Of a stretch of 64,000 nt of DNA, positions 13,323 through 16,571 are shown piece by piece (position 1 is the stretch's first letter; each line of letters begins with the position of its first letter). Position numbers and translations under genes: made by a program. The notes under the pieces are model-generated. The model ran no database searches. It was given only the letters and a program-made list of their open reading frames with translations, and was not told the DNA's origin. The stretch spans positions 3,075 through 67,074 of the forward strand of contig CAZXYN010000002.1 in the NCBI GenBank assembly GCA_964644965.1, given 5' to 3'. The DNA is from an uncultured Candidatus Saccharibacteria bacterium. GTDB taxonomy: Bacteria > Patescibacteriota > Saccharimonadia > Saccharimonadales > JACDBH01.

Positions 13323-14003
13323 ATGTCAGAAGCCTTTCAAGCTACTCAGCCAGAAAATCCAGAAGACGACCAAATTGACCGGTTGGTGCAACAGGTTCGT
13401 GAATACTGGATCGCCGAGCAATCTGCAATAGAGGTAAACGAGGGCAATGAATCCTCTTTGAGTCAAAGCTATCGTGATGACGCTAGAAAGACTTTTGATA
13501 ATCTGGTAGAGCTGACGTACAAGGACGTGTACACGCTCGCCTACCGGATGACTGGTAGAGAGCACGATGCTGAGGATGTCACCCAAGAAGCCTATCGTCG
13601 TGCGTGGGGCGGCCTGTCAAAATTCAAGGGTGATGCACAGTTTACAACCTGGATGCACCGCATCGTTGTCAATGCCTCGAACACCCATATGGGGCGCCGC
13701 AAGCGTCACGAGCACGCGGATTATGAGGATATTCCTGAGAGATCATTAGTAGTGTCTGGTGGACAGGAAGAATCAGCTGCCAACAGGGAACTCAGCCAGG
13801 AATTACAACGGGTGCTTGGAAGTCTGCCAACCAAACTCCGGGCTGTTATAGTTCTGCGCGATATTTATGACCTGCCGCACGCCGAAATCGCCGAACAGCT
13901 TGGAATATCAGAAACCGCAGCCAAAGTACGCCTGCACCGCGCCCGCAGAAAGCTCCGCGAAGAACTCTATCTCCGCAGTGACGAGCTATATCCAAAGCAG
14001 TAG
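13323..14003 (+). CDS. Sigma-70 family (ECF-like) RNA polymerase sigma factor
   Basis: Region 2 (DAEDVTQEAYRRAW...FTTWMHRIVVNA) and region 4 HTH (LPHAEIAEQLGISETAAKVRLHRARRKLRE). Confidence 0.9.
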   Translation: MSEAFQATQPENPEDDQIDRLVQQVREYWIAEQSAIEVNEGNESSLSQSYRDDARKTFDNLVELTYKDVYTLAYRMTGREHDAEDVTQEAYRRAWGGLSKFKGDAQFTTWMHRIVVNASNTHMGRRKRHEHADYEDIPERSLVVSGGQEESAANRELSQELQRVLGSLPTKLRAVIVLRDIYDLPHAEIAEQLGISETAAKVRLHRARRKLREELYLRSDELYPKQ

Positions 14004-14041: not shown

Positions 14042-14074
14042 TGGTAGCAAGGGCGGGACTTGAACCCGCGACCC
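14042..14074 (-). pseudogene. 3' half of a split/disrupted tRNA-like gene (variable loop, T-arm, acceptor 3' strand, CCA)
   Basis: Minus strand reads GGGTC GCGGG TTCAAGT CCCGC CCTTGCT A CCA. No D-arm or anticodon arm lies immediately upstream. Confidence 0.7.
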
Positions 14075-14289
14075 GAAGAAGCTCGGGGAGCTTCTGAGTT
14101 CACGCTAGATGTGCGTCTCCGACTGTTTAGTGATTTGTGGTTGCAAAAGCTTTTCTGATTGTATAGCGCTGAGCGCCGAAGGCGCGACAGGCTTATATAG
14201 CTTCACGCCAGGGAATCTATTTCTTTTCCAAGGAAGGATTCCTTGGGTTCGGCATATATTCTCGCTAATCGCTCGAATATGAGTCTTGC
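14075..14289 (-). other. Hairpin-rich 215-nt spacer inside the tRNA transcription unit
   Basis: Perfect hairpins AGAAGCTC-CCC-GAGCTTCT, CCAAGGAA-TCC-TTCCTTGG and GCGCC-TTC-GGCGC, plus a degenerate CAU anticodon-arm-like piece (AAGACTCATATTCG). No ORF is present. Confidence 0.4.
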
Positions 14290-14306
14290 TTGAAAATTTA
14301 TTTTGG
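14290..14306. repeat. 17-nt inverted repeat, arm 1 (includes the CCA end of tRNA-Met)
   Basis: ttgaaaatttattttgg is the exact reverse complement of 14382-14398. Confidence 0.9.
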
Positions 14307-14380
14307 TAGCGGCGACTGGACTTGAACCAGTGACCCCAGGCTTATGAGTCCTGTGCTCTAACCAACTGAGCTACGCCGCC
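14304..14380 (-). tRNA. tRNA with CAU anticodon: elongator Met or Ile2 (lysidine)
   Basis: 77-nt cloverleaf GGCGGCG TA GCTC AGTTGGTTA GAGC A CAGGA CTCATAA GCCTG GGGTC ACTGG TTCAAGT CCAGT CGCCGCT A CCA. C11:G24 is the elongator type. tilS is present in the window. Confidence 0.9.
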
Positions 14381-14381
14381 C

Positions 14382-14398
14382 CCAAAATAAATTTTCAA
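14382..14398. repeat. 17-nt inverted repeat, arm 2 (5' leader of tRNA-Met)
   Basis: ccaaaataaattttcaa is the reverse complement of 14290-14306. Confidence 0.9.
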
Positions 14399-14400
14399 AT

Positions 14401-14432
14401 CACTGTGCTCTAACCAACTGAGCTACCTTGCC
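14401..14432 (-). pseudogene. 5' half of a split/disrupted tRNA-like gene (acceptor 5' strand, D-arm, anticodon-stem 5' strand)
   Basis: Minus strand reads GGCAAGG TA GCTC AGTTGGTTA GAGC A CAGTG. The acceptor strand is complementary (G-U plus 6 Watson-Crick pairs) to CCTTGCT at 14046-14052. No 3' anticodon strand follows. Confidence 0.7.
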
Positions 14433-14483
14433 TCGTCGAAGTGTAAGAGTAGTAGAGTTCTTACAGATAAAGCGACAGGGGTG

Positions 14484-14512
14484 AGTATAACATCTTTGAC
14501 TATCTTTGACCA
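14484..14512 (-). promoter_or_regulatory. Putative promoter of the tRNA array
   Basis: Minus strand reads TGGTCA-17 nt-TATACT, followed by the discriminator-like ACCCCTGT also seen after the tRNA-Lys promoter. Confidence 0.5.
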
Positions 14513-14516
14513 GAGT

Positions 14517-14876
14517 CTAACAATCCTCGTGGTAGTATTTGTGGGCCCAATTTTTGAGCTCTGTCAGGGCTCTTTTGAGGTCATGTGCCTTCTGGGTGGG
14601 GCTGTAGACAGTGCGTGGCGGGAATTCGTTGAACTTTTGGCGGGTGATGAGTCCGGCTTCCTCGAGCGTTCTGAGACGCTTGGACAGGGTGCGTGGATTT
14701 AGCTTGGGTAGAGATTTCTCGATATCTTTGAATCGGCTGTCGCCATTGAACAGGCAAATCAGTATCAGGCTAGACCAACGATCACCAATAATTTTGAGTG
14801 CACTTTTCATCTCCAGAAAAGGGCCTGGTTCGGCTTGGAGTTTGTCTAATATTTCTTGGGGATTATGCATATTCAT
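14517..14876 (-). CDS. HxlR-family winged-helix transcriptional regulator
   Basis: IIGDRWSSLILICLFNGDSRFKDIEKSLPKLNPRTLSKRLRTLEEAGLITR. It is divergent from an MFS efflux gene. Confidence 0.85.
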   Translation of the reverse strand: MNMHNPQEILDKLQAEPGPFLEMKSALKIIGDRWSSLILICLFNGDSRFKDIEKSLPKLNPRTLSKRLRTLEEAGLITRQKFNEFPPRTVYSPTQKAHDLKRALTELKNWAHKYYHEDC

Positions 14877-14975
14877 ACTTTACTTTGTATAGCATAGTGT
14901 GTAATACTTGAATACATCAATACTATACTAAATATAGTATAACACAAGAATATCTCTTATAAAAGAAAGGCAAAC

Positions 14976-16571
14976 ATGGAATTTCTACGTTCAAAATTAA
15001 AGATGGTCAAGCGCCGTGACTATATACCGGAGAAAGTATATGCTCGTCGCTGGTACACGCTTGGTGTACTCTGTCTGTCACTGATAGTGGTGATGGTGGG
15101 GAACACGGCGCTCAATGTTGCGTTGCCGGTACTTGCGCGTGATTTGTCGGCGACCAACTCGCAGTTGCAGTGGATGGTGGATTCCTATTCGTTGGTGTTT
15201 GCGGGCTTTTTGTTCACGGCCGGCGCCATAGGCGACCGTTTTGGGCGCAAGGGAATACTGCAGGCAGGACTGGTTCTGTTTGGCGCGGCTTCGCTCTATG
15301 CTGGGACTCTGGCAGAAACAGCTACGGCGCTAATTGTGGCAAGGGCTTTCATGGGTCTAGCTGGCGCTATGATTATGCCGGCTACGCTGTCTATTCTGAC
15401 AAATATTTTCCCTACGAAAGAACGTGCCCGAGCTGTTGGTATTTGGGCGGGTGTTAGTGGCGCCGGTGTGGCGCTGGGACCACTGCTAACAGGCTTCGTT
15501 TTAGAGCACTTCAGCTGGCACGCAGTGTTCCTGATAAATATTCCACTGATTGTAATCACGCTGCTGACCGGTGTATTTCTGGTGCCGCGGACAGCTGATC
15601 CTGAACATACGCATCTGGATCCAGTCGGGGCCGGGCTGTCTATTGTCGGACTAGTGTCACTGGTTTACGCAATTATCGAAGGTCCGCATCACGGCTGGAC
15701 ATCGGCGATGACGCTAGGAATCGGTGCGCTTGGTCTGCTGGCGCTTGGCCTGTTTGTTCTGTGGGAACTTCACCACAAGAATCCGATGCTCGATGTACGG
15801 CTATTCAAAATACCGGCCTTTGGTATCAGCTCGTTGACGTTGACATTAGTGTTCTTTGCGCTGATGGGCATTTTCTTCAATATGAGCCAGCTGTTGCAGC
15901 TGGTGTTTGGCTATTCGCCGCTTGAATCCGCCGTACGCATGTTGCCAGTGGCCTTTACGATCATGATTGCTGCGCCATTGTCACCTAGGCTGGTTGAAAA
16001 GTTCGGCAAAAGAAGAGTAGTAGCGGCTGGTATGTTGCTGGTGGCAATCGGCACCTTCAGTTTGTCTCTGATTGGTCTGGATTCGCCGTTCATCGCACTA
16101 GCTGGCTGTATGGTACTGGTGGCCATGGGTATGGGTACAGCAATGTCGCCAACGACTGATCTGCTGATGTCGGCTGTGCCAAAAAACCGCGCCGGTATGG
16201 GTTCTGCTATGAACGATACTACACGCGAACTGGGGGGAGCGTTAGGTATCGCTGTGCTCGGGAGTATTCTCGCGTCACAGTATTCGAACAGAATTGCGCC
16301 AGTTGTGGCTCAGGTTCCTGAATCTGCCAAATCTTTCGTGGAACAATCTCTAGCCGGTGCGTTGGCTGTTGCCGAGCAAGCTGGTGCTGCTGGCGAACCA
16401 CTGGTTCGGGCTTCTAAAGAAGCTTGGTTGGGTGGCTATCGCTACTCACTAATTATTGGTGCGATAATGATTGCCATTGCTGCCATCATTGCCTACAGAG
16501 GTCTACCTGATTCGGCCGCCGACGAAGAAATCCCAGAAGAGGGTAATTTCGAAGCCTCAGAGCTGAAGTAG
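14976..16571 (+). CDS. MFS transporter, DHA2 (EmrB/QacA-like, 14-TMS) drug:H+ antiporter
   Basis: Motif A-like GAIGDRFGRKG, ~14 hydrophobic segments, and length typical of DHA2. Confidence 0.85.
   Translation: MEFLRSKLKMVKRRDYIPEKVYARRWYTLGVLCLSLIVVMVGNTALNVALPVLARDLSATNSQLQWMVDSYSLVFAGFLFTAGAIGDRFGRKGILQAGLVLFGAASLYAGTLAETATALIVARAFMGLAGAMIMPATLSILTNIFPTKERARAVGIWAGVSGAGVALGPLLTGFVLEHFSWHAVFLINIPLIVITLLTGVFLVPRTADPEHTHLDPVGAGLSIVGLVSLVYAIIEGPHHGWTSAMTLGIGALGLLALGLFVLWELHHKNPMLDVRLFKIPAFGISSLTLTLVFFALMGIFFNMSQLLQLVFGYSPLESAVRMLPVAFTIMIAAPLSPRLVEKFGKRRVVAAGMLLVAIGTFSLSLIGLDSPFIALAGCMVLVAMGMGTAMSPTTDLLMSAVPKNRAGMGSAMNDTTRELGGALGIAVLGSILASQYSNRIAPVVAQVPESAKSFVEQSLAGALAVAEQAGAAGEPLVRASKEAWLGGYRYSLIIGAIMIAIAAIIAYRGLPDSAADEEIPEEGNFEASELK

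Follow-up and report, generated by a model that had tools for sequence, protein, structure and literature searches.

A complete tRNA-Met gene nested within an interrupted tRNA-Met gene in Saccharibacteria

Introduction

How do two matching halves of a tRNA gene come to lie on either side of another, apparently intact tRNA gene, and does the interrupted gene still have a function? This question is raised by a locus on the minus strand, at 14432-14042, of a 64,000-nucleotide stretch of a Saccharibacteria chromosome (the window). The original prediction was that a promoter is followed by a tRNA 5' half, an intact tRNA with a CAU anticodon, a 215-nt hairpin-rich spacer and a tRNA 3' half with an immediately following terminator, that the two halves belong to each other, and that about 10 nt of the anticodon arm could not be found. 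It was proposed that this was a tRNA gene destroyed by an insertion (a pseudogene), a gene with an unusually large intervening sequence that is removed, or a pair of halves that associate as in the split tRNAs of Nanoarchaeum.

Here we show that the outer gene, which we term the shell, is more complete than was thought, being a tRNA(CAU) gene present in four pieces that are separated by three inserts, the first of which carries a complete, working-looking tRNA-Met gene. The arrangement recurs in many candidate-phyla-radiation (CPR) bacteria, and we found no description of it in the literature that we were able to search.

Anatomy of the nested locus

The features of the locus, all on the minus strand, are as follows.

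14512-14484, promoter-like site: TGGTCA, a 17-nt spacer and TATACT with an extended -10 TG
14483-14433, 5' leader, ending in the 8 nt TTCGACGA
14432-14403, shell piece 1 (tRNA positions 1-29): acceptor 5' strand GGCAAGG, complete D-arm, then A-CAG of the anticodon stem
14402-14286, Insert 1: 5' strand of the X stem (14398-14382), inner tRNA (14380-14304) and 3' strand of the stem, X' (14306-14290, overlapping the inner CCA), with short flanks
14380-14304, inner tRNA(CAU), 77 nt with encoded CCA
14285-14278, shell piece 2 (positions 30-37), GACTCATA: GA of the anticodon stem and CTCATA of the loop, with the anticodon CAT at 14281-14279
14277-14194, Insert 2, at tRNA position 37/38: closing stem ATATTC/GAATAT, a small hairpin and a lineage-specific long hairpin (CCAAGGAATC...GATTCCCTGG)
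14193-14188, shell piece 3 (positions 38-43), AGCCTG: A38 and the anticodon-stem 3' strand GCCTG
14187-14075, Insert 3 (type A, 113 nt), at tRNA position 43/44: begins with hairpin GCGCC-TTC-GGCGC and ends with hairpin GAAGCTC-CCC-GAGCTTC
14074-14042, shell piece 4 (positions 44-76): GGGTC, T-arm GCGGG-TTCAAGT-CCCGC, acceptor 3' strand CCTTGCT, then A and CCA
14033-14015, intrinsic-terminator-like hairpin followed by a T run

The observation therefore stands: the 5' half (14432-14401), the inner tRNA and the 3' half are all present at these positions, as are the promoter-like site, the terminator-like hairpin and the three perfect hairpins with 3-nt loops, and the outer acceptor pairs at 7/7 positions as G1-U72 plus six Watson-Crick pairs. 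However, three corrections are needed. The stretch between the inner tRNA and the 3' half is 229 nt (14303-14075) and not 215 nt. The nucleotides that were thought to be missing are present as shell pieces 2 and 3, so that the outer gene is complete and is cut at three sites, not one. Finally, the inner tRNA is bracketed by a ~17-bp leader/trailer stem that includes its CCA (TTGAAAATTTATTTTGG / CCAAAATAAATTTTCAA), which had not been noted. The boundary between shell piece 1 and Insert 1 is ambiguous by 1-3 nt because of a short CA(G) repeat.

The inner tRNA was called as tRNA-Met(cat) by ARAGORN and scored 67.7 bits with the Rfam tRNA model, against a gathering score of 29. Its helices are 97-100% paired across the family, except for an invariant A.G at 31-39. 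It is a canonical, probably elongator, tRNA-Met and is presumed to be the functional gene; its assignment as elongator Met rather than Ile2 rests on general resemblance and on the existence of a separate third CAU tRNA type in Saccharibacteria contigs. We did consider that shell and inner tRNA might be two different CAU species (elongator Met versus Ile2), as they differ at acceptor pairs 4-6 and the locus is adjacent to tilS, but this was rejected because both share one anticodon arm and D-arm and because of this third type.

The promoter-like site was found in a consensus scan, and its function is inferred. The same layout (TAGCCAACAG...TGNTATATT..CCCCTGT) precedes many nested and un-nested tRNA-Met genes in relatives. 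It can be seen that the terminator-like hairpin directly follows the shell CCA, both here and in relatives, and no terminator-like site lies between the inner tRNA and the shell 3' end. When the full unit was folded, the shell acceptor stem closed it (z = -4.5) and the halves were predicted to pair.

The shell is an interrupted tRNA-Met gene

To determine whether the shell pieces make up one gene, we deleted the inserts in silico (unit positions 31-147, 156-239 and 246-358). This gave a perfect 77-nt cloverleaf (GGCAAGG...GCGGGTTCAAGTCCCGCCCTTGCTACCA), with not one shell base lost or changed. Comparison with related genomes, which had been suggested as a way to find the uninterrupted ancestor and its anticodon, identified such a gene: the rejoined shell is identical at 71/71 comparable positions to an uninterrupted gene at the same syntenic position, convergent to the sigma-factor gene, in L241 (loci and contigs from relatives and from the scans are given L numbers), and at 74/77 to the intact gene in L246. 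Shell piece 4 is identical to the 3' part of the intact genes in L241 and L240-L245. We conclude that the arrangement is not due to chance.

The shell also occupies the place of the resident gene. The last 8 nt of the leader (TTCGACGA) are shared with the leaders of L088, L095, L157 and L237, and similarity between the window and L088, its closest relative, begins 8 nt before shell G1. In relatives with the same promoter or the same leader, a plain tRNA-Met starts exactly where the shell 5' end starts, L157 and L237 being empty sites with the same leader. Thus there is presence/absence polymorphism at one site among relatives, and the empty site in L241 equals the joined flanks. Shell and inner tRNA are redundant, having the same anticodon arm and D-arm and differing only by five compensated base pairs.

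Conservation of the acceptor complementarity in relatives had been named beforehand as a test of the prediction. The outer acceptor was 100% paired in 8/8 family members, and the T stem 95%. Moreover, the shell showed 0/84 differences between the window and L088, equal to the inner tRNA and significantly below the 16/118 differences in the inserts (p = 2.4e-4), although the flanking genes are only 72-75% identical. For this lineage the shell does not therefore show the accumulation of substitutions and loss of pairing at the neutral rate expected of a plain pseudogene. Decay is, however, seen in other lineages: L025 and L127 have degenerate shells, L122 and L224 keep only the stem, L077 has a degenerate T stem, and the anticodon loop of the L059 shell has U33C and an extra base (an 8-nt loop). 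The shells of L079 and L106 have changes at position 32. In five family members the shell and inner tRNA share lineage-specific variants.

The inserts

The X/X' leader/trailer duplex was assessed by duplex energy, since the register of the stem varies by one between loci. It is -20.4 kcal/mol in the window and -12.5 to -30 in nested relatives, compared with -6.2 +/- 3.1 in 113 un-nested genes, and the stem sequence differs between lineages but stays complementary. As full-length MAFFT alignment misaligned the variable 3' inserts, we used a core alignment from which Insert 3 was removed; a covariance model of the unit was not built, because of its length and because eight sequences give little power. 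The consensus fold showed two-sided changes in the closing stem and inner hairpin of Insert 2, and there are compensatory differences in this insert between the window and L088. The strength of the X/X' duplex and the two-sided changes in Insert 2 indicate that the stems are under structural selection. A35, U36 and A37 of the shell are predicted to pair into its closing stem.

Insert 3 is absent from L088 but present at the same site in L011, with similar ends and a compensated terminal hairpin, and it is of two unrelated types within the family. We asked whether the inserts were high-copy MITE-like repeats, but no other copy occurs in the 64-kb window and there were only short matches elsewhere, of Insert 3B in L097 and of the Insert 2 core in L155.

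Nested tRNA genes recur

Seven other Saccharibacteria genomes share the architecture. In a scan of a genome collection, restricted to the TAGCTCAGYTGGYTAGAGC D-arm, 58 of 114 evaluable double-D-arm loci were complete nests, up to four deep and 42 of them with Patescibacteria titles, and the inner tRNA has the shell's anticodon wherever that of the shell is readable. Nesting is nevertheless the exception among related tRNA-Met genes, since of 120 metagenome stretches matching the scan pattern in the first 49 nt of the inner tRNA, 117 were un-nested. In L037 the outermost acceptor differs while the three inner levels are identical, and L088 has an extra orphan 3' half; such layering fits repeated insertion into the intact copy.

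In L018, L027, L028, L034, L057, L069 and L084, from other phyla, the nested cargo is a tRNA plus a GIY-YIG (PF01541) ORF. These nests have a differently built shell, with the anticodon arm replaced by a GC hairpin and with overlapping fragments, and may not be homologous to the ORF-less CPR nests. By contrast, no GIY-YIG hit was found in the window or in any Saccharibacteria tRNA-Met nest, and no nuclease, integrase or transposase gene was linked to the window locus or to any of the eight Saccharibacteria nests. The gene families shared by three or more nested loci include tilS, ftsH and an unannotated protein, none an evident nuclease, although not all clusters were annotated. No target-site duplication or conserved terminal repeat was found. 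An integron attC-like reading of the GTTAAAT...ATTTAAC stems in other CPR nests was not pursued because the motif is not universal.

Comparison with tmRNA, introns and split tRNAs

The size (~390 nt) and order of parts are reminiscent of tmRNA (ssrA), and ARAGORN at an 80% score threshold called 14432-14042 a tmRNA with the tag AEPKESFLGKEIDSLA followed by a stop (14253-14203, within Insert 2). However, ARAGORN called no tmRNA at its default threshold, and the Rfam tmRNA model (RF00023) gave only weak local hits on the T-arm region (16.2 bits in the window, 16-17.5 bits overall) against a gathering score of 47. The acceptor has C3-G70 rather than the G3-U70 alanine identity pair in all 8 family members, and the 5' end has a full D-arm. 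The tag lies in a lineage-specific hairpin and is not conserved: it reads AEPKKSIP (stop) in L088 and the region is absent in six relatives, L095, L011, L077, L079 and L106 among them, while differences there are compensatory for RNA pairing and not for coding.

Rfam searches for intron models had likewise been called for in advance. No group I (RF00028) or other intron hit was found at E <= 10 in the window locus or at E <= 0.5 in eight relatives, and no group II intron, ribozyme or other Rfam family matched the inserts. Removal of the inserts does restore a perfect tRNA, as for an intron, but three separate inserts (at about 29/30, 37/38 and 43/44) must be removed and only one of them is in the anticodon loop, so this feature alone does not speak clearly either way. 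The inserts are too short or too fragmented to hold a catalytic core.

We also inspected the junctions against the predicted folds for the bulge-helix-bulge geometry of archaeal tRNA introns, without a formal search, and saw none. Insert 1 has a 4x4 internal loop next to the X stem, the 5' junction of Insert 2 lies inside a helix while its 3' junction is single-stranded, and the ends of Insert 3 do not pair with each other. By inspection, the junctions also have no common motif.

Interpretation

The original interpretation is partly borne out: the two halves do belong to each other and not to the embedded tRNA, and everything lies in one transcription unit. Of the explanations offered, disruption of a tRNA gene by an insertion is closest to the evidence, since relatives carry the same allele intact at the same position, but a plain pseudogene is too simple because the insertion supplies a redundant copy of the same tRNA species, the arrangement recurs across Patescibacteria and the shell shows no decay in this lineage. 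A large intervening sequence that is removed is not supported, and although the halves are predicted to pair, nothing indicates joining or decoding.

The reading that we favour, with moderate confidence, is that the resident elongator-type tRNA(CAU) gene of this lineage (allele GGCAAGG...CCTTGCT) was invaded by an insertion carrying a complete second allele of the same tRNA (GGCGGCG...CGCCGCT) between self-complementary flanks. Because the insertion would bring a replacement for the gene it destroys, it would need no splicing and would be tolerated in a genome that presumably has few or single tRNA gene copies, as reduced CPR genomes do, although copy number was not examined here. Two more hairpin-rich inserts would later have entered the dead anticodon arm, or travelled with the first. 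In this view the whole unit is transcribed from the resident promoter to the resident terminator, the long leader/trailer stem isolates the inner tRNA so that it folds on its own, the inner tRNA is released by the usual end-processing enzymes (RNase P and 3' trimming, possibly after RNase III cuts the stem), and the shell pieces, which survive as a co-transcribed, tRNA-shaped leader and trailer, fold back into a tRNA-shaped by-product that cannot decode. The anatomy, the intact ancestral allele in relatives, the recurrence of nests, the structural conservation of the stems and the link of similar nests to GIY-YIG genes in other phyla come directly from the sequences examined; that the events were insertion rather than loss, the processing pathway, and the means of mobility (homing-type double-strand-break repair using the tRNA halves as homology arms, with a nuclease acting in trans or since lost) are inferences. 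Mobility is unproven for this family. Moreover, an abandoned pseudogene should not be as well conserved as this shell, so either the insertions are recent or horizontally spread, or the shell RNA is itself constrained, and the variants shared by shell and inner tRNA in five family members need gene conversion or local duplication, not simple import of a foreign allele.

A possible but less likely alternative is that the shell and its inserts form a functional RNA, a tRNA-shaped scaffold with acceptor, D and T arms intact and the anticodon sequestered, kept because it directs or buffers processing of the inner tRNA (as an entry site for RNase P or the CCA enzyme, or by protecting the ends) or acts as a non-decoding tRNA mimic or decoy. 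The absence of shell differences from L088, the paired acceptor and T stems, the compensatory changes in Insert 2 and X/X', the fold of the full unit and the tRNA-shaped shell without an anticodon loop in the GIY-YIG-linked elements would all be consistent with this. Against it, most related tRNA-Met genes are un-nested, close relatives carry the shell allele as an ordinary intact tRNA, shells are lost or decayed in L025, L127, L122 and L224, and Insert 3 varies in presence and type; where the shell equals the inner tRNA, conservation can be explained by gene conversion, and the two-sided changes in the shell helices may predate nesting. We regard it as very unlikely, though not excluded, that the shell is a working gene whose three intervening sequences are removed and whose four exons are ligated by a protein- or RNase P/Z-dependent pathway not yet known in bacteria. 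If so, one transcript would yield two tRNA-Met molecules, the inner one excised from the first intervening sequence, and this would be a bacterial counterpart of archaeal multi-intron or split tRNAs. The perfect rejoined tRNA, the unchanged shell and the resemblance of the insert sites to positions reported for archaeal tRNA introns, which was not checked here, favour it. However, the lack of any ribozyme or bulge-helix-bulge match, the changes in shell anticodon loops of relatives that are incompatible with decoding, the degenerate T stem of L077 and the redundancy of the shell argue against it, and no bacterial protein-based tRNA splicing pathway is known; only 64 kb of the genome and no RNA data were considered, so that neither a splicing endonuclease and ligase, nor a joined product, nor expression of the locus was assessed. 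As far as sequence analysis allows, a tmRNA is refuted, the shell being demonstrably an interrupted tRNA-Met. An assembly artefact caused by the repeated D-arm is equally improbable. Short-read Logan contigs of the same species do break inside the repeat, but the two D-arm copies are only 29 nt apart and bridged by unique sequence, so that single reads would span them, five independent Logan contigs reproduce the window exactly from the inner tRNA or most of it (complete in L251) through the shell 3' half, and the architecture occurs, with compensatory differences, in the seven other independently assembled genomes.

If the favoured reading is right, an insertion can disrupt an essential, low-copy gene by carrying a full replacement of that gene rather than by splicing itself out, resulting in Russian-doll tRNA genes. 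As standard tRNA finders report only the inner gene and short-read assemblies break at the repeat, the phenomenon is systematically under-reported in Patescibacteria genomes. The nests give a sequence-level record of repeated tRNA-allele replacement in reduced genomes, and the tie to tRNA-linked GIY-YIG genes in several phyla suggests a wider class of tRNA-targeting mobile elements. The unexpectedly perfect conservation of the shell raises the question of whether bacteria make stable, non-decoding tRNA-shaped RNAs, or even joined tRNAs, from such loci.

Relationship to known systems

A precedent for mobility is provided by SegB, a free-standing GIY-YIG homing endonuclease of phages T4/T6, which cuts inside tRNA genes and drives recombination-dependent duplication of tRNA segments in phage T6 (PMC13096335). 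In the related loci described above, a GIY-YIG ORF lies directly after the nested tRNA and its 3' end overlaps tRNA-like sequence, although whether these small bacterial proteins are homing enzymes was not tested. SegB, however, is a phage gene and produces tandem amplification rather than a nest, and the Saccharibacteria nests have no nuclease gene within the sequence examined. Homing-endonuclease insertions in organelle genes can also disrupt a host gene but restore function by bringing a copy of the lost part, leaving non-functional host fragments beside it. Those cases involve protein-coding genes and partial duplicates, whereas here a whole tRNA gene is supplied and the host gene is left complete but split around it.

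Group I introns in the anticodon loops of Patescibacteria tRNA genes occur in the same phylum and the same kind of target, and the interrupted genes are likewise missed by standard tRNA finders (PMC13011429). Those introns are ribozymes that self-splice and restore the tRNA, whereas the inserts here match no intron family and contain a tRNA instead. In the archaeal split and multi-intron tRNA genes (Nanoarchaeum split tRNAs, Caldivirga tri-split tRNAs, Thermoproteales intron transposition), tRNA genes are cut at several positions, complementary flanking sequences bring the pieces together and the intervening sequences behave as mobile elements (summarised in PMC10714607), and here the X/X' stem and the shell acceptor stem would likewise hold the pieces together. 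However, archaeal pieces are joined by a splicing endonuclease that recognises bulge-helix-bulge motifs, plus a ligase, a pathway not known in bacteria; the shell is redundant and its anticodon loop drifts in relatives, and we know of no archaeal case with a complete cognate tRNA inside the intervening sequence. Finally, tRNA gene fragments left by integrative elements (attL/attR remnants) resemble the orphan tRNA 3' halves downstream of an intact tRNA that are additionally seen in L088 and L155. Integrase-mediated insertion leaves a 3' fragment at the far end of a large element and no 5' fragment upstream, whereas at this locus, which has no integrase nearby, both halves closely flank a ~120-nt insert.

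Organisation of the locus

Inspection of the minus strand confirmed the four parts that made up the original prediction, and its observation therefore holds. These are a tRNA 5' part, a complete tRNA(CAU), a hairpin-rich stretch and a T-arm/acceptor/CCA part, and they are accompanied by a promoter-like site and a terminator-like hairpin. The features are as follows, all on the minus strand.

14512-14484: promoter-like site
14432-14401: tRNA 5' part of the outer gene (the shell)
14402-14286: Insert 1 (a stem plus the inner tRNA)
14398-14382 with 14306-14290: the two strands of a 17-bp stem formed by the leader and trailer of the inner tRNA, including its CCA
14380-14304: inner tRNA, a canonical tRNA(CAU)
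14285-14278: GACTCATA, anticodon-arm bases of the shell
14277-14194: Insert 2 (tRNA position 37/38)
14193-14188: AGCCTG, anticodon-arm bases of the shell
14187-14075: Insert 3 (tRNA position 43/44)
14074-14042: T-arm/acceptor/CCA part of the shell
14033-14015: terminator-like hairpin

As had been proposed as a check, the locus was analysed with ARAGORN and with Rfam models. The inner tRNA was called by ARAGORN and scored 67.7 bits against the Rfam tRNA model. The outer acceptor strands pair 7/7, and the whole 391-nt unit is predicted to fold with that stem closing it (MFE -138.8 kcal/mol, z = -4.5). Two features had not been recognised previously: the 17-bp stem, and the anticodon-arm bases at 14285-14278 and 14193-14188, which had been supposed to be missing. 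The outer gene is thus complete and is cut at three sites, and deletion of the three inserts in silico gives a perfect 77-nt cloverleaf.

The window is a bacterial chromosome of about 47% GC, with genes that include tilS, ftsH, lepA, hrcA-grpE-dnaK and a WhiB-like gene (assigned by eye from the translations). The locus lies between a gene for an ECF-type sigma factor (13323-14003, convergent) and one for an HxlR-type regulator (14517-14876). The closest homologous locus (L088) and the rest of the family described below are from Candidatus Saccharibacteria MAGs.

The unit is not accounted for by known RNA families

When the ARAGORN threshold was lowered, the unit was called as a tmRNA with the tag AEPKESFLGKEIDSLA*, and the Rfam tmRNA model gave a 16-bit local hit. 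However, several results exclude this reading. The acceptor has C3-G70, the 5' end has a full D-arm, and the 'tag' lies in a hairpin specific to the window/L088 lineage, which reads AEPKKSIP* in L088 and is absent from six relatives. In addition, substitutions in that hairpin are compensatory for pairing. No intron, ribozyme or other Rfam family matched the inserts in the window or in eight relatives at permissive thresholds.

A family of nested tRNA-Met genes

To identify similar loci, we scanned one genome per species for two tRNA D-arms too close together to be tandem genes. The scan returned more than 119 loci, most of them from Patescibacteria. Seven Saccharibacteria loci, L088, L095, L011, L077, L079, L059 and L106, share the architecture of the window. 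Each has, in order, the shell acceptor and D-arm; the stem X, the inner tRNA-Met and the stem X'; CAGGA-CTCATA; Insert 2 followed by TATAA-GCCTG; an optional Insert 3; GGGTC, the T-arm and the acceptor with CCA; and a terminator.

The sequence of the X/X' stem differs between lineages but stays complementary, with duplex energies of -12.5 to -30 kcal/mol, compared with -6.2 +/- 3.1 for 113 un-nested genes. Insert 2 has a conserved closing stem, ATAWWC/GWWTAT, that sequesters A35, U36 and A37 of the shell, along with an inner hairpin, and both show two-sided changes. Loss of acceptor complementarity in relatives would have counted against the original prediction, but on the core alignment the shell acceptor is 100% paired in 8/8, with two-sided changes at 4 of 7 pairs. 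The shell T stem is 95% paired, with two-sided changes at 3 of 5 pairs, although the changes in these two stems may be differences between once-functional alleles and not post-nesting compensation.

Insert 3 comes in two unrelated types, always at 43/44. Type A is in the window and L011, whereas type B is in L059, L079 and L106 and also in the nested tRNA-Ile(GAU) of L097; L088, L095 and L077 have no Insert 3. The L097 nest (L097:3003-3290) lies in the 16S-23S spacer of a Saccharimonadales rRNA operon, and its shell carries the Insert-3B-like module as ..CAAGCAAGGAAAACGTAAA-hairpin-TTTACGGGTC.

The uninterrupted gene in relatives

Comparison with related genomes, to identify an uninterrupted ancestor, had also been suggested in advance. 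Homologues of the neighbouring sigma factor led to syntenic contigs. In contig L241 the sigma factor is 55% identical to that of the window, and a contiguous tRNA lies at the same convergent position; from G7 to CCA it is identical (71/71) to the rejoined shell of the window. In contig L246 the sigma factor is 60% identical, and an intact gene that differs at 3 of 77 positions (one base pair plus one D-loop base) lies between the sigma factor gene and tilS. When 14042-16571 of the window is compared with L246:3693-3912, these two genes are separated in L246 by 218 nt, with only the intact tRNA(CAU), on the opposite strand, between them. The HxlR regulator (14517-14876) and MFS transporter (14976-16571) genes of the window are absent there, and the tRNA locus therefore sits in a variable segment.

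We also scanned metagenomes with the inner tRNA sequence alone, and of 120 stretches 117 were un-nested. Many have the same promoter motif or the same leader ending TTCGACGA, and in those the plain tRNA starts exactly where the shell starts in nested loci. The promoter-like motif, TAGCCAACAG-N10-TGNTATATT-AACCCCTGT, recurs upstream of Saccharibacteria tRNA-Met genes in many of these stretches (L120-L239), and the version in the window (14484-14520) is CTGGTCAAAGATAGTCAAAGATGTTATACTCACCCCTGT. A conserved leader of ~110 nt (GAGAGGAG...CGAAGCTTTTG-hairpin-CAAAACGAG...CGACGA) precedes both nested and un-nested tRNA-Met genes (L088:7140-7251, L095:4400-4515, L157, L237 and L189). It has no Rfam match, and the window keeps only its last 8 nt (TTCGACGA, 14440-14433). 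We conclude that the shell is the resident gene and that the nested state is derived, or at least dispensable.

Logan short-read contigs of the window's species and of the P0002 lineage (L240-L245 and L247-L251) end inside or just beside the tRNA locus, either in the repeated D-arm or at GGGTC|GCGGG. The repeat breaks short-read assemblies, so such loci will be under-represented, although the branch points may also reflect coexisting nested and un-nested variants.

The shell and the inner tRNA have identical D-arms and anticodon arms and differ by five compensated base pairs. Saccharibacteria contigs (L156, L167, L178 and L234) carry three distinct CAU tRNAs, namely the initiator, the GGCGGCG type and a GGGGGY...GTCGGCTCATAACCGAT type. 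The shell and the inner tRNA are therefore redundant alleles of one species and not a Met/Ile2 pair. Which of the latter two types is elongator Met and which is Ile2, the TilS substrate, was not resolved. The GGCGGCG type lies within 0.6-2.4 kb of tilS in all eight nested loci.

Nesting in other tRNA genes

Of 114 evaluable double-D-arm loci, 58 are complete nests. Of these, 42 have Patescibacteria titles, and several others look like mis-binned CPR contigs. The nested tRNAs are Val, Met, Ile, Ala and Lys, a range that is limited by the D-arm pattern used in the search. The inner tRNA has the anticodon of the shell wherever that of the shell can be read, and different host tRNAs share insert-stem classes, CACCCCGTTA.../...TAACGGGGCAAG and CCTGCCCGCC.../...GGCAGGCGGG.

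The Patescibacteria MAG locus L037 (L037:6430-6790) is a four-deep nest of tRNA-Val(GAC), with three successive 5' halves, one intact tRNA and then three 3' halves. Its outermost acceptor (GGGCGGC) differs from the three inner levels, which are identical (GGGTTCG), as expected if the same unit repeatedly enters the intact innermost copy. This is MAG sequence for which we made no independent check; locus L033 is similar but contains a run of N. Decay stages also occur: L025 and L127 have degenerate shells, L122 and L224 keep only the stem, and L088 (7530-7600) and L155 (about 110-260 nt downstream of its tRNA-Met) carry extra orphan tRNA 3' halves downstream of the main gene. In L155 the T-loop of the orphan contains the same ACGCRCAG-hairpin-GAG core that forms Insert 2 of the nested family, which suggests that small modules move between tRNA-like sites.

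Association of similar nests with GIY-YIG genes

Seventeen of the genome loci have a ~75-95-aa GIY-YIG ORF (PF01541, 54-67 bits), almost always next to the duplicated tRNA part. In L018, L027, L028, L034, L057, L069 and L084 the order is shell 5' part, complete cognate tRNA, GIY-YIG ORF, shell 3' part. This is the same nesting, with a nuclease gene as extra cargo, and it occurs in several phyla. The shell in these loci nevertheless differs from that of the window. In these seven loci and in L031 and L075 (for example L028:7378-7860), the ORF directly follows a complete tRNA and is flanked by a truncated 5' copy and a D-loop-to-3'-end copy of a tRNA-like sequence, which equals the inner tRNA except that its anticodon arm is replaced by a GC-rich hairpin. 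The stop codon of the ORF is the TAG of GGTTAGAGC in the D-arm of the 3' copy, and an RNA overlapping the 3' end of the nuclease ORF is a suggestive layout.

The free-standing GIY-YIG homing endonuclease SegB of T-even phages cuts within tRNA genes and also drives recombination-dependent duplication of tRNA segments (PMC13096335). By analogy, we infer that nests arise by double-strand-break repair that uses the tRNA halves as homology arms, in which case the ORF-less CPR nests would be miniature or trans-mobilised forms. In contrast to the anatomy of the loci, this step is inference only. The window and all Saccharibacteria tRNA-Met nests lack any linked nuclease, integrase or transposase. The inserts of the window are single-copy within the 64 kb.

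Conservation and possible role of the shell

To assess whether the shell has been abandoned, we compared the window with L088. Flanking genes are 72-75% identical in DNA, whereas the unit is 94% identical, and similarity stops at shell G1 (-8 nt) and at the shell CCA.

Differences between the window and L088 by position class
Shell: 0/84
Inner tRNA: 0/77
Inserts: 16/118

The shell differs significantly from the inserts (Fisher p = 2.4e-4), and a long-abandoned pseudogene should not look like this. One explanation is that the insertion spread horizontally and recently into a conserved resident gene, in which case insert divergence would reflect the history of the element and not time in place. 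Alternatively, the shell RNA may be constrained, for example as a tRNA-shaped processing scaffold, or the shell may be a working gene whose inserts are removed. This last reading is disfavoured because there is no ribozyme and no common junction motif, because the shell is redundant with the inner tRNA, and because in relatives the shell anticodon loop carries U33C, an extra base, or changes at position 32. The acceptor, D and T arms of those relatives stay intact and are often identical to the inner copy, which suggests gene conversion. Sequence alone did not separate recent horizontal spread from constraint on the shell RNA.

Taken together, the interpretation offered in the original prediction is partly supported: disruption of a tRNA gene by an insertion is right, whereas the absence of about 10 nt, an intron and a Nanoarchaeum-like arrangement are not supported. 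The explanation that we favour, with moderate confidence, is a nested replacement tRNA gene left by a tRNA-carrying insertion, with the shell co-transcribed as a tRNA-shaped leader and trailer. The main rival, that the shell is a functional scaffold, is possible but we consider it unlikely.

Comparison with known systems

Full-text searches found self-splicing group I introns in Patescibacteria tRNA genes (PMC13011429) and archaeal split and multi-intron tRNAs (PMC10714607). No description of a tRNA gene nested within a cognate tRNA gene in bacteria was found in these searches, which covered only part of the literature. The mechanism that we propose is of a type already known, namely homing-type mobile DNA that compensates for the gene it interrupts. 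The architecture, however, appears to be new, and consists of a whole replacement tRNA inside a cleanly sectioned cognate tRNA, nesting up to four deep, and a structurally conserved clamp stem around the inner tRNA.
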